Below, in pieces: positions 7,241-12,163 of a DNA stretch of 32,000 nt (position 1 is its first letter; every line of letters begins with the position of its first letter). This DNA comes from Candidatus Scalindua sp. Lineage in GTDB: Bacteria; Planctomycetota; Brocadiia; Brocadiales; Scalinduaceae. The DNA is taken from the NCBI GenBank assembly GCA_031316235.1, contig JALDRA010000001.1, forward strand, positions 1,290,001 to 1,322,000, read 5' to 3'. Position numbers and translations under genes: made by a program. The notes under the pieces were generated by a model. It made no database searches, was not told the origin of the DNA, and saw only the letters and a program-made list of their open reading frames with translations.

Positions 7241-7873
7241 ATGAAAAAATTGGAATCCACCATGTACTATCTATCTCTCTGCCAAATGAATAGGGTAACC
7301 GTATACAGAATTTCTTTTCTGTGTTCCTTTTTTTGGATAGTGTCTCTCTCTCAATCCATCTCCTTTGCTCAGGACAAGAGTAATTCCATCGAGGCCTGTA
7401 AAGGTTTGGTTGATTATACCCCCGTGCAGGGGTATCTTCGTCGTTTGAAATTACGCCGAGGGGAACTTTTCGAATACTCCTGTAATGAATGCCACCGAAT
7501 GTTTGGTACCGTTGCAAGGAGGAAATCCCGAATAGCCGAGCATGTGGACCTCGTGCTGAATCACGGCAGCAACGATAACTGCCTGAACTGCCATCATAAG
7601 ACCAATCGGGATGCCTATGTAACAAACGACGGCAAAGAGATACCTTCTGACAGGCCGGCAGAACTCTGCTCCAGATGTCATGGTATGGTATATGGAGACT
7701 GGAAAGTCGGCGCCCACGGCCGGACCAGCGGTTCATGGAATAGAACAGAAAAAGGATGGCATTCACTTGTCTGCATAGAATGCCATAACCCTCATGATCC
7801 TGAGTTCCCGCAACTTGTTCCCATGTCAGCCCCTGCTCTACCGGGCAGAAAAGCAGAAAAGGAGACTCATTGA
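7241..7873 (+). CDS. tetrahaem c-type cytochrome, secreted or membrane-anchored
   Basis: Four CXXCH motifs (CNECH, CLNCH, CSRCH, CIECH). Hydrophobic N-terminus (ISFLCSFFWIVSLSQSISFAQD); the start could be an internal Met (e.g. 7286). The stop overlaps the next start (TGAATG). Confidence 0.85.
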   Translation: MKKLESTMYYLSLCQMNRVTVYRISFLCSFFWIVSLSQSISFAQDKSNSIEACKGLVDYTPVQGYLRRLKLRRGELFEYSCNECHRMFGTVARRKSRIAEHVDLVLNHGSNDNCLNCHHKTNRDAYVTNDGKEIPSDRPAELCSRCHGMVYGDWKVGAHGRTSGSWNRTEKGWHSLVCIECHNPHDPEFPQLVPMSAPALPGRKAEKETH

Positions 7874-8830
7874 ATGTCTGACAAAGCTACCGGAAAGCGC
7901 GCCGCAAGCAGGAAGGAGATGTTTAAACCCTTAAGCAGGAGAAGTTTTCTCAAAGCAGGTGCTTTGGGTTCACTTTTAATTGGAGGCACCAGTGCGGCAA
8001 TGCTTCCGCTTCGCAAATTTAAGAACGATACATCACTGGAGGCCTTCTTCCAGCAGCACTATGAACGTCTTACCCCGGGAAGAATGGAAAGGATACTGAA
8101 ACGCATTGAAAATGAGGTAAAAGAGCGGCACGGAATAGAAGCCAGCGTGACAGATCCAAAACCAATCCCTGGCGTTCAGTTTGCATATGCGTTAAATATC
8201 AGCCGTTGTGTGGGATGCCGACGTTGTGTGCATGCCTGTGTTGAGGAAAACAATCAATCAAGAGACCCTGAAATCCAGTATATCAGAGTACTGGAAATGC
8301 CGAATGGTACTTTTGATGTTGAAAAATCTAATCACTATTATGCTCCGGATACTGTACCCACCGACGGGAAATATTATATGCCGGTCCAGTGTCAGCAGTG
8401 CGAGAACCCGTCATGCGTAAAAGCCTGTCCGGTGGGAGCAACATGGAAAGATGATGATGGTATTGTTGTAATTGACTATGACTGGTGTATTGGCTGCCGA
8501 TATTGCGAAGCAGCGTGTCCCTATTGGGCGCGCCGATTCAATTTTGCTGATCCAGAAATCCCAAAGGAGCAGATTAATCCCGAAATGGCATACCTTGGCA
8601 ATCGAATTCGCCCTAAAGGAACCATGGAAAAATGTACCTTCTGTCTCGGGAGGGTGCGCAATGGACTCCTTCCAAAATGTGCCGAGGCGTGCCCAGCCGG
8701 TGCAAGGCAATTTGGAAATCTTTTGGATCCCGATAGTGTTATCAGGCATATATTGCGGGAAAAAAGAGTATATGTATTTAAAGAGGAAGTGGGAACTCGG
8801 CCAAAGTTCTATTACTGGTTTGATAAATAG
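7874..8830 (+). CDS. Tat-exported four-cluster [4Fe-4S] ferredoxin subunit, NrfC/PsrB/DsrO-type
   Basis: Twin-arginine signal RRSFLKAGALGSLL. Four Cys groups: CVGCRRCVHAC, CQQCENPSCVKACP, CIGCRYCEAACP, CTFC...CAEACP. AAGGAG RBS. Confidence 0.88.
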   Translation: MSDKATGKRAASRKEMFKPLSRRSFLKAGALGSLLIGGTSAAMLPLRKFKNDTSLEAFFQQHYERLTPGRMERILKRIENEVKERHGIEASVTDPKPIPGVQFAYALNISRCVGCRRCVHACVEENNQSRDPEIQYIRVLEMPNGTFDVEKSNHYYAPDTVPTDGKYYMPVQCQQCENPSCVKACPVGATWKDDDGIVVIDYDWCIGCRYCEAACPYWARRFNFADPEIPKEQINPEMAYLGNRIRPKGTMEKCTFCLGRVRNGLLPKCAEACPAGARQFGNLLDPDSVIRHILREKRVYVFKEEVGTRPKFYYWFDK

Positions 8831-9104
8831 TGGTTGATTGAAAACTATCCACCTGCTGCGTTGCTGTGATAATTTCGTGCTCATCACGGACTTCAGCACG
8901 ATCAGTCTGAAAAATAAGTGCACACCTTGTGTCTGGAGAGTGCCGATCCGTCCACCCGGTTTCCATTCAAGCAGCAAGCGGACAATGGGTAGGGGCTCGC
9001 GATAAAAGGTAAAACATTTTCCCCAGAACCCGGAACAAAAGTGTTTTTTTCCTGGTTTAATCGTACTCAGTGGGCCCGATGCATTTCAGGCCTGGAGGTA
9101 AAAG

Positions 9105-10376: not shown

Positions 10377-10684
10377 TTCTGACTCAAACCGACAGGGTTT
10401 CCGTTCACGGCTTCACTGTTGAATTCCGGATTACAGGCTGTGGGGCATTCTCATTAACAATGAAAAGAGACAACAATGTAAAAAACAGGAAAGTCTGATA
10501 ACTGCCTGGCTACCGTCGCCTGTGCGTGTCGCATGCACAGAGGTGTTGGACACACGTAGACAGGTCTTCATTTAACAACCCGGCCGAACCGGAACACATT
10601 GGAAATTTATCATTTTCTGGTTCCGGCTCTGCCGGGTTGGAGTAATAAGAATACATTTTTTATGATTAAGGGAGGTCTTACATT

Positions 10685-12163
10685 ATGAAACAATTCCACT
10701 ATCTCTTGTTTGTTTTCCTGGTAGGAGTACTCTTCTTCAGGTCGACTCCGGTTATTGCGGCATTCTCGCCGGCTTCTTTAACTCCAGAGTCGGCAGAGTG
10801 CATCCAGTGCCACAAAAAAGAGACAAACACCCTTTACCAGCAGTGGGGAGCAAGCAAGCATTATGGGGCGAACATTGGGTGTTATGAATGCCACGCTGCA
10901 GAGGAGGGAGATGTCGATGCATTCCAGCATGATGTGAAACTGGAAGATGGCACAACGTACAAGGGAAAACTTATTTCTATTATCGTCAGCCCACGTGACT
11001 GCGGCAAATGCCATGAACGGGAAGTAAAGGAATTTTCTGAATCTCACCATGCTTATGCCGGTAACATTATGGGTTCTCTCGACAATGTGCTTGCAGAAGT
11101 CGTAGAGGGGAATAATGGCTTTGTAACTGAAGGGTTTCCCGATGGAGTATCTGCCGCAGCAGTAAGCGGATGCTGGCAGTGTCACGGCAGCATCGTAAAA
11201 GTTCTCCCCGGCGGCAAGCTGGACCCTGCAACCTGGCCCAACACGGGTATCGGGAGAATCAACCCTGATGGTTCCAAAGGTTCCTGTTCAGCCTGCCATT
11301 CACGACATATCTTCTCTGTAAAACAGGCCAGGCATCCAGAAAACTGCGGCAAATGCCATATGGGACCAGACCATCCCCAGATGGAAATTTATCAGGAATC
11401 AAAGCATGGTATTGCATTCTATGCCAATATTGACAAGATGAATCTTGACAATCCTAAATGGGTAATTGGAGAAGACTACAACGCCGCGCCGACATGCGCA
11501 ACCTGTCACATCTCAGCAACATCAAATCAGCCGGTAACCCATGATGTCGGAATGCGGATTTCCTGGAACAACAGGCCAATAATATCCGTACGTCCTGAAG
11601 TCGCCGATGAAAAAATGGGCCTCCCTGGTGCGAAAGTGAAATGGCAGACCAGAAGAGAAAATATGCAGGATGTCTGCCGCAACTGTCACAACCAACCGTT
11701 TGTCAGCGGATTCTACAGGCAATATGATGCCTTGCTTGATCTATACCATGAAAAGTTTGCAATTCCCGGTCAAGAGCTCATGGAAATTTCTGCTCCGCTT
11801 CGGGAACCGGTAAAATTCTCTAATAAGATTGATTTTACCTGGTTTGAACTCTGGCACCACGAAGGCAGGAGAGCAAGACATGCGGCTGCAATGAGCGGCC
11901 CAGACTGGACCCATTGGCACGGAACCTATGATATTGCCAAAAACTTTTATTCTCATTTTATCCCTGAGCTTGAGGAGTTGATAGAGAAGGGAAAGGATTC
12001 AACTGATACGAAAAGGGTTGAGGCAGCAAAGGCAACCGAAGAACGGTTGAGTGAGGTCATGAACAGCAAGAACCACAAATGGTATTTGAATAAAATGGAC
12101 CCTGAAGAAAGTGAAAGACGCAAAGCTCGCCAGGCTGAATTTAAAGCTCGTTACGCGAAGTAG
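10685..12163 (+). CDS. octahaem c-type cytochrome, hydroxylamine oxidoreductase (HAO) family
   Basis: Signal peptide. Eight CXXCH motifs (CIQCH, CYECH, CGKCH, CWQCH, CSACH, CGKCH, CATCH, CRNCH). HAO-type block [28 protein letters not shown] RBS. Confidence 0.88.
   Translation: [492 protein letters not shown]

Follow-up and report, generated by a model that had tools for sequence, protein, structure and literature searches.

A 32,000-nucleotide stretch of DNA from Candidatus Scalindua (contig JALDRA010000001.1, positions 1,290,001 to 1,322,000; hereafter the window) carries, at 7241-12163 on its + strand, four genes that on balance probably encode a single respiratory or detoxifying module on the membrane's P-side, one in which quinol would drive the reduction of nitrite and, probably, of hydroxylamine and nitric oxide (NO). 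The genes encode a tetrahaem cytochrome c (cyt4), an iron-sulfur subunit (FeS) exported by the twin-arginine translocation (Tat) system, an NrfD-family membrane subunit and an octahaem cytochrome c (OCC) that belongs to the HAO/IhOCC superfamily. This reading is supported by the complete electron path that the four proteins offer, the conserved linkage of their genes, the nap context of many of these loci, the closeness of OCC to the IhOCC of Ignicoccus hospitalis and an active site that has no cross-linking tyrosine. An earlier sequence-only reading had proposed an alternative hydroxylamine/nitrite/NO:quinone redox module; both the synteny and the HAO-family placement described below speak for it. 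More tentatively, an HAO/IhOCC-type OCC on a cyt4/DsrO-like/DsrP-like quinol dehydrogenase could be a third, widespread type of respiratory ammonia-forming nitrite reductase. We infer the formation of a complex, its quinol donor, substrate and product and any proton translocation or energy coupling from what can be read off the sequences directly, namely which genes the cluster contains, the cofactor motifs and export signals of their products, and their family placement, synteny and napA linkage.

A conserved four-gene cluster, often linked to napA

The ORF list of the window contains all four co-directional genes where the sequence-only reading had put them: cyt4 at 7241..7873 (+; 210 amino acids, aa), the DsrO-like FeS subunit with its four [4Fe-4S] clusters at 7874..8830 (+; 318 aa), the DsrP-like membrane subunit with ~10 transmembrane helices at 9105..10376 (+; 423 aa) and OCC at 10685..12163 (+; 492 aa). 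The four CXXCH haem motifs of cyt4 and the eight of OCC, along with the HAO-type block of the latter, are likewise present, and an N-terminal hydrophobic segment of OCC (residues 4-29) is consistent with a signal peptide or anchor. A different gene caller starts cyt4 seven codons further in, which gives a protein of 203 aa. The TGAATG junction proposed to couple translation of the first two genes is present at 7871-7876, where the FeS start codon immediately follows the cyt4 stop codon. That the four ORFs are genes and not chance reading frames is evident from the thousands of octahaem homologues (7964 at E<=1e-5 in a protein homology search) and from an identical copy of the cluster on an independent 8.3-kb Logan contig from a public run. 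The window is Candidatus Scalindua DNA, and its octahaem protein is 92-94% identical to proteins in Scalindua metagenome-assembled genomes (MAGs).

A survey of synteny in related genomes had been named as a way to refute the association of the four genes. We scanned one genome per species (588 relatives) and examined the best 80 loci, with proteins 62-94% identical to OCC. The four-gene set is kept in 54 of the 80, the complete cyt4/FeS/NrfD trio adjoining the OCC gene; eight other loci are cut by contig ends and seven are uninformative. Gene order among the 54 is mostly that of the window, cyt4-FeS-NrfD-OCC (43 loci). Ten more, mostly from Myxococcota and Bdellovibrionota, have the order OCC-cyt4-FeS-NrfD on the same strand, and in a single locus the trio is on the opposite strand with napA in between. 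Homologues of cyt4 (26-78% identity) stand before the FeS gene in the 54 loci, and the gaps between genes in the carrier genomes are mostly below 200 nt. The carriers come from at least eight phyla and include Planctomycetota, Verrucomicrobiota, Hydrogenedentota, Omnitrophota and Desulfobacterota, as well as Myxococcota, Bdellovibrionota, Aminicenantes and Gammaproteobacteria. Close OCC homologues (at least 62% identity) occur in hundreds of genomes, and the family comprises 258 clusters at 50% identity with E<1e-30. Among the culturable carriers is Endothiovibrio diazotrophicus, whose OCC (P0096) is 69% identical to that of the window.

Apart from the trio, one further enzyme recurs near OCC, the periplasmic nitrate reductase encoded by napA. 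Clustering of the neighbouring ORFs placed a 780-aa NapA (917 bits on NF010055, whose cut-off is 904) beside the cluster in 16 of the 80 loci, six of which also have a NapB-like tetrahaem cytochrome family (NapB') 3' of napA; napDA is found, too, near an OCC relative of only 52% identity. Often these loci are compact co-directional arrays, for example NapA-NapB'-cyt4-FeS-NrfD-OCC-X152 or FeS-NrfD-OCC-(~90 aa)-NapA-NapB'-X152. Neither NapC nor NapGH is evident in the gene maps of the nap-linked loci, and in such operons the same quinol dehydrogenase may feed NapAB as well. No sulfur-metabolism family was found among the recurrent neighbour families, only three of which are annotated. A similar arrangement has been noted before: Slobodkina et al. 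(2017) described in Thermosulfurimonas and Dissulfuribacter a locus beside nap whose products are a HaoA-like cytochrome, a member of the NrfD family, a 4Fe-4S protein and a cytochrome c, and they proposed a role in nitrite reduction, without experiments, and sulfur metabolism as an alternative (PMC5276818).

X152 in these arrays denotes a conserved protein of ~150 aa that matches neither Pfam nor NCBIfam and has no obvious signal peptide. Its gene lies directly 3' of OCC or napAB in 20 of the 80 loci (for example in L016, L026, L032, L035, L041, L062, L072 and L079), whereas a tblastn search of the Scalindua window gave no match.

The octahaem enzyme and its active site

The placement of OCC in the HAO family, which the sequence-only reading had proposed, is confirmed by every comparison that we made. 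The protein matches the Pfam family Multi-haem_cyto, and all of its PDB matches are IhOCC, HAO, HOX, HAOr or HDH. The best of these by a wide margin is IhOCC (4QO5, E=2e-47, 165 bits); the others, with at most 65 bits, are the Kuenenia HAOr (6H5L, 4e-17), the Nitrosomonas HAO (3e-16), the Kuenenia HOX (8e-12) and HDH (8e-11). With a profile built from 28 family sequences, IhOCC scored 4e-63 versus 2e-24 for the HAO group. For a comparison with the nitrifier enzyme, we took a full-length sequence of the Nitrosomonas HAO (NeHAO) from metagenome contigs (L087) and aligned profiles by hhalign. OCC and the profile of HAO from ammonia-oxidising bacteria (AOB) align with 100% probability (E=5e-40, 277 columns, 24% identity), and the local alignment spans OCC residues 33-373, covering all eight haem motifs. 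The C-terminal third of OCC, on the other hand, does not align to HAO in phmmer and hmmsearch comparisons with the PDB. With eight haem motifs in conserved order and detectable homology throughout, OCC belongs to the HAO/IhOCC superfamily, and its top score to IhOCC, together with the WPNxGxGRxNPDGSxGxC segment, inserted between haems 4 and 5 in OCC and IhOCC alike but missing from NeHAO, puts it in the IhOCC subfamily. By these sequence comparisons OCC is IhOCC/epsilon-Hao-like rather than nitrifier-HAO-like. IhOCC itself is considered a sister of HAO and HDH within one clade (‘clade 1’ of Soares et al.), has no P460 cross-link and is grouped among nitrite reducers (PMC9250108).

The active site of OCC shares some residues with HAO and departs from it in others. 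Its fourth haem motif is CWQCH (residues 163-167), with H167 invariant in 90 family sequences; the catalytic haem 4 is thus His-ligated (CXXCH) and not of the CXXCK type of NrfA and ONR. The pair D229-H230 of OCC, invariant in the close clade, aligns with D267-H268 of NeHAO (CATCHSGVDH), and the invariant R297 aligns with Y334 of NeHAO; Asp267, His268 and Tyr334 are what we take to be the distal-pocket residues of NeHAO. IhOCC carries Asp-Val where the OCC family carries the HAO-like Asp-His. A GPDHP block is common to OCC and the Kuenenia protein Kustc0458.

Oxidative HAOs are defined by a tyrosine that forms the P460 cross-link. In NeHAO this residue, Y467, sits within GGWTYTEGW. A global hhalign alignment pairs it, at low confidence, with OCC H410, and a second register based on xYTxxxG, which we judge equally plausible, pairs it with W408. 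The alignment to NeHAO that the sequence-only reading had called for thus yields no equivalent of the tyrosine: the window OCC has no Tyr at either candidate position (W408, H410), with the reservation that the C-terminal alignment is weak, and to that extent it lacks the residue that defines the oxidative enzymes (nitrifier HAO, anammox HOX and HDH). Among close relatives (at least 62% identity) position 408 is Y, I or W, and is therefore not a conserved cross-linker. The nearest tyrosine of OCC, Y415, aligns instead with Y499 of IhOCC, and the DWT in the cross-link region is common to OCC and IhOCC. The HAOs without a Tyr cross-link studied to date are reductive, with negligible oxidase activity (PMC8042395). 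Because there is no Tyr at the cross-link positions and napA adjoins the cluster in 16 loci, the chemistry of OCC is probably reductive. The direction, which the sequence-only reading had left undecided, is in our view most likely that of a reductase, with N-oxides as the likely substrates.

The partner module and its relation to known systems

The three other proteins could supply what such a reductase would need in order to draw on the quinol pool. In the first, cyt4, the CXXCH motifs start at residues 81, 114, 143 and 178, preceded by a single hydrophobic segment at 19-37 (signal peptide or anchor). Its family matches are weak, being limited to cytochrome c3/c7 and to NrfB and NrfH at E ~1e-4 (Pfam, NCBIfam); no DsrJ model was among its NCBIfam matches, and it has no significant relative in the PDB. 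The FeS subunit carries a twin-arginine motif (SRRSFLKAG) near the N-terminus, Fer4_11 and Fer4_7 domains and four Cys groups of the CxxCxxCxxxC(P) type at residues 112, 173, 205 and 254 (16 Cys in all), and is thus a Tat-exported four-cluster ferredoxin of the PsrB/NrfC/DsrO type. Its top NCBIfam match is DsrO, followed by ArrB, QrcC, TtrB and NrfC, and its nearest PDB chains are ArrB (6cz7), PsrB (2vpw) and ActB. The membrane subunit matches Pfam NrfD (PF03916) at E=8e-39, with 134.5 bits against a cut-off of 25.8 and coverage of profile positions 3-300 of 313; it has ~10 hydrophobic segments without haem or Cys-cluster motifs, as expected of the NrfD/PsrC family. Among proteins of known structure it comes closest to ActC chains from alternative complex III (E=1e-6). 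Taken together, two cytochromes, a Tat-exported FeS protein and a polytopic NrfD-family protein add up to a complete P-side path.

Of the assignments that the sequence-only reading had made for this pair, the Tat-exported four-cluster protein and the NrfD-family membership stand. By its scores the pair is DsrO/DsrP-like and not NrfCD- or MccCD-like. The membrane subunit exceeds the cut-off of the DsrP equivalog (NF045798, 399.5 bits versus 350), with QrcD far behind at 49 bits and no NrfD, PsrC or MccD model among its NCBIfam matches, whereas the FeS subunit falls short of that for DsrO (168.7 versus 200). Membership of the Nrf system fails because the equivalog scores are far under their cut-offs (21.7 bits versus 184 for cyt4 against NrfB, and 111 versus 378 for the FeS subunit against NrfC); nor is there an NrfA or NrfD equivalog among the NCBIfam matches of the four proteins. 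Equally, we do not class the cluster as Dsr, since there is no DsrMK context and no trihaem DsrJ, cyt4 having four haems. DsrM and DsrK were absent from the window and from those related loci that we examined, and the neighbours in the window are a radical-SAM-like gene and an AI-2E transporter. The pair is, as we read its sequences, a DsrOP-like one that has been recruited to a different job, and not a Dsr system. This has a practical consequence: the NCBI DsrP model fires without dsr context, and loci of this kind in Planctomycetota, Verrucomicrobiota and other phyla may be misread as sulfur metabolism.

The overall plan has obvious counterparts among known systems, none of which is identical to it. 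NrfABCD of E. coli also joins a periplasmic multihaem catalytic subunit to a small multihaem relay; its FeS protein, too, has four clusters and is exported by Tat, and its quinol dehydrogenase is an NrfD-family protein without cofactors (PMC12285233). However, NrfA is pentahaem with a CXXCK active haem where the enzyme here is octahaem with CXXCH, its relay NrfB has five haems instead of four, and the FeS and membrane subunits here score as DsrO/DsrP. In MccACD an octahaem catalytic cytochrome is similarly linked to quinol by an FeS/NrfD pair (PMC8076601). However, MccA, which has a copper site and carries the active haem in its N-terminal module, belongs to a different clade (PMC9250108), and MccACD has no extra tetrahaem relay, while the membrane subunit here is DsrP-like. 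DsrJOP, NhcABCD and QrcABCD of sulfate reducers are likewise made up of a multihaem cytochrome in the periplasm, an FeS protein with four clusters and an NrfD-family subunit of 10 helices (PMC8076601); in contrast to these, the cluster described here is found in hosts that are mostly neither sulfate reducers nor sulfur oxidisers, and its genes are tied to an HAO-type enzyme and to nap. The epsilonproteobacterial Hao (epsilon-Hao) is, as predicted here for OCC, a reductive non-cross-linked octahaem enzyme of the HAO family downstream of Nap (PMC8042395, PMC9938260), but its quinol dehydrogenase is a single NapC/NrfH-type cytochrome where we find a three-protein cyt4/FeS/NrfD module. The nitrifier HAO with c554 and cM552 (HURM) shares the octahaem fold family and the distal Asp-His pair, but differs in sequence (24% identity), in the absence from OCC of a Tyr467 equivalent, in the replacement of Tyr334 by Arg297, in its partners and likely in its direction, which would be the opposite one. 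Finally, IhOCC (Igni_0955), the closest relative of known structure, is archaeal and lacks the ~70-aa C-terminal extension found here.

The absence of a characterised precedent for an HAO-family enzyme wired to an FeS/NrfD module, which the sequence-only reading had noted, is borne out as far as our searches go. The 2021 review of the NrfD family lists no HAO- or IhOCC-type partner (PMC8076601), and our full-text literature searches found no characterised example, but the arrangement itself had been noted genomically, in the remark of Slobodkina et al. (PMC5276818). The repertoire of NrfD-family modules would thereby gain a new catalytic partner. One other lead was pursued and set aside: the Tyr-less HAO kustd2021/Brocadia EX330_11045, from a five-gene cluster induced on electrodes (preprint), belongs to a different gene set, made up of phosphatase-like, peroxiredoxin, hemerythrin, HAO and hypothetical genes and not of cyt4/FeS/NrfD (preprint supplement).

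More distant relatives of OCC (36-57% identity) have partners other than the trio. A NapC/NirT/NrfH-type tetrahaem gene lies directly 5' of OCC in P0141 and P0170 (36-41% identical), as in the arrangement of the nitrite-reducing epsilon-Hao. Directly 3' of the OCC P0122, which is 57% identical to that of the window, is a gene whose 661-aa product joins a multihaem cytochrome c and a cytochrome-b domain of the Ni_hydr_CYTB type (L082 8668-10653), to all appearances another quinol module for this enzyme family, here made of one protein. P0139 has a tandem second OCC and a Fer2/FAD/NAD reductase, and no obvious partner was seen beside P0131 or the IhOCC-like bacterial P0262, the latter having no trio next to it. 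From these neighbourhoods, the catalytic subunit is one that has repeatedly been tied to a membrane quinol/quinone module, the trio being the solution of the window's clade. One octahaem clade would thus have swapped its quinol dehydrogenases between the NrfH type, a cytochrome-b fusion and the cyt4/FeS/NrfD trio.

Proposed function, its rivals and the surroundings of the cluster

In the mechanism that we propose, menaquinol would be oxidised at the DsrP-like NrfD-family membrane subunit, the putative quinol/quinone site. From there the Tat-exported DsrO-like subunit would carry the electrons, by way of its four [4Fe-4S] clusters, to cyt4, the presumed relay between this subunit and the haem chain of the octahaem enzyme, and the His-ligated, non-cross-linked haem 4 of OCC would reduce an N-oxide on the P-side, most likely to ammonium. 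Nitrite ammonification (dissimilatory nitrate reduction to ammonium, DNRA) sets whether fixed nitrogen stays or is lost, and surveys of it count nearly only nrfA. With an HAO/IhOCC-type enzyme on a quinol module of its own, many potential nitrite reducers that are at present uncounted would have to be added. If the more tentative reading as a third type of ammonia-forming enzyme is true, Planctomycetota, Verrucomicrobiota, Hydrogenedentota, Omnitrophota, Myxococcota and Bdellovibrionota would have a DNRA or nitrite-detoxification enzyme that is invisible to nrfA surveys. For Scalindua in particular, it would be a candidate for the nitrite-to-ammonium step, and one testable in anammox biology. 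An HAO-like protein that forms ammonia had been put forward for this step in the genome paper of Scalindua profunda, with scal02288 named as a candidate (PMC3655542); the annotated neighbours of scal02288, such as a SecE-like gene, differ from the four-gene cluster.

Several observations weigh against this proposal. In eleven of the 80 loci OCC stands without the trio although 4 kb or more upstream of it are available, and no alternative redox partner was seen beside them on inspection by eye. The Scalindua window itself has no nap genes near the cluster. The C-terminal alignment of OCC with HAO behind the tyrosine test scores only 1-2 on a scale of 0-9, and an AlphaFold2 model of OCC, made from the 28-sequence alignment, was unusable (mean pLDDT 59, haem core below 50). 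The likeness of the FeS/NrfD pair to DsrOP keeps a sulfur substrate possible, and sequence does not separate ammonium from NO as the product. Lastly, the OCC gene could be separately regulated or transcribed, given the gaps of 274 nt (8831-9104, between FeS and NrfD) and 308 nt (10377-10684, between NrfD and OCC), the second of which holds a strong hairpin.

One of the loci without the trio, L081, has two ORFs upstream of OCC (5769-6699). One combines a Tat-like signal with GGCA at the C-terminus; the second encodes a small, beta-rich protein. By eye they resemble SoxY and SoxZ.

Among the alternatives, the one nearest to our proposal is that the same complex makes NO, as a quinol:nitrite reductase that feeds hydrazine synthase in the manner of the Kuenenia HAOr (Kustc0458/7). 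The host is, after all, an anammox bacterium, and Kustc0458, an HAO without the Tyr cross-link that shares the GPDHP block with OCC, reduces nitrite to NO (PMC8042395). We nevertheless think this unlikely: OCC is far nearer to IhOCC than to Kustc0458 (165 versus 65 bits), the cluster is common in non-anammox phyla and is linked to nap, which is a better fit to nitrate ammonification or detoxification, and Scalindua profunda already has a cd1 NirS listed for NO production (PMC3655542).

A non-nitrogenous role, be it as a reductase of sulfite, thiosulfate, tetrathionate or polysulfide or as a general periplasmic electron conduit, also strikes us as improbable, although it has several points in its favour. 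The membrane subunit scores above the NCBIfam cut-off for DsrP and the top match of the FeS subunit is DsrO; octahaem MccA reduces sulfite with an FeS/NrfD pair (PMC8076601); Slobodkina et al. gave sulfur metabolism as an alternative for their locus (PMC5276818); and the ORFs upstream of OCC in L081 are SoxY- and SoxZ-like, as judged by eye. Nevertheless, there is neither a DsrMK context nor a DsrJ-type cytochrome among the matches, it is napA that recurs (16 loci) and no sulfur family is among the recurrent neighbours, of which three families are annotated, and OCC retains HAO-type active-site residues, its nearest characterised relatives acting on N-oxides.

Least probable is an oxidative role, which the sequence-only reading had also allowed. 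Electrons taken by OCC from hydroxylamine or hydrazine would then reach quinone via cyt4, FeS and NrfD, which would make the module an alternative HURM or the missing link between anammox intermediates and the quinone pool: membership of the HAO superfamily with its Asp-His pair, the ability of NrfD-family modules such as Qrc to reduce quinone (PMC8076601) and the anammox host would all suit it, but the window OCC has no Tyr at either cross-link position, 408 varying between Y, I and W, non-cross-linked HAOs have negligible oxidase activity (PMC8042395), and the carriers of this nap-linked cluster are mostly neither nitrifiers nor anammox bacteria.

The two long gaps within the cluster are a peculiarity of Scalindua; the NrfD-OCC gap in other phyla measures only 37-260 nt. 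Neither contains a site on the + strand that resembles an intrinsic terminator, and the scan for promoters and terminators was not above shuffle expectation. The second holds a long imperfect hairpin at 10576..10639 (+; minimum free energy -36.1 kcal/mol, z=-5.9 versus shuffles), which is kept in two other Scalindua MAGs with three pairs preserved by double changes. It is followed on the 3' side by the stretch GAATACATTTTTTATGATTAAGGGAGG, which includes a TATGAT box and a ribosome-binding site and differs among the three Scalindua by no more than a 1-nt indel. The hairpin is specific to the Scalindua lineage and may act in processing, stability or regulation. In two MAGs labelled Brocadiaceae, in both of which OCC is 81% identical, the upstream part of the cluster is altered: ~2.8 kb separate the FeS and NrfD-like genes in L005 (2641-5472), and in L006 FeS and cyt4 were not found within 7 kb upstream. 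This appears to reflect an insertion or rearrangement at the same junction as the 274-nt gap of the window.

Immediately 5' of the cluster is a 407-aa ORF (5632-6855, +) whose match to radical SAM is weak and does not reach the Pfam cut-off. It is kept at 72% identity in one Scalindua MAG (L002) but is not conserved in other loci, and a functional tie to the cluster is unlikely. The sole Rfam match across the window is a tRNA gene at 1115-1186 (+). On the opposite strand, ~8.5 kb from the cluster, a 396-aa ORF (20688-21878, -) has globin, FAD-binding and NAD-binding domains, the architecture of an Hmp-like flavohaemoglobin, and is thus a putative NO-detoxifying enzyme in an anammox bacterium.

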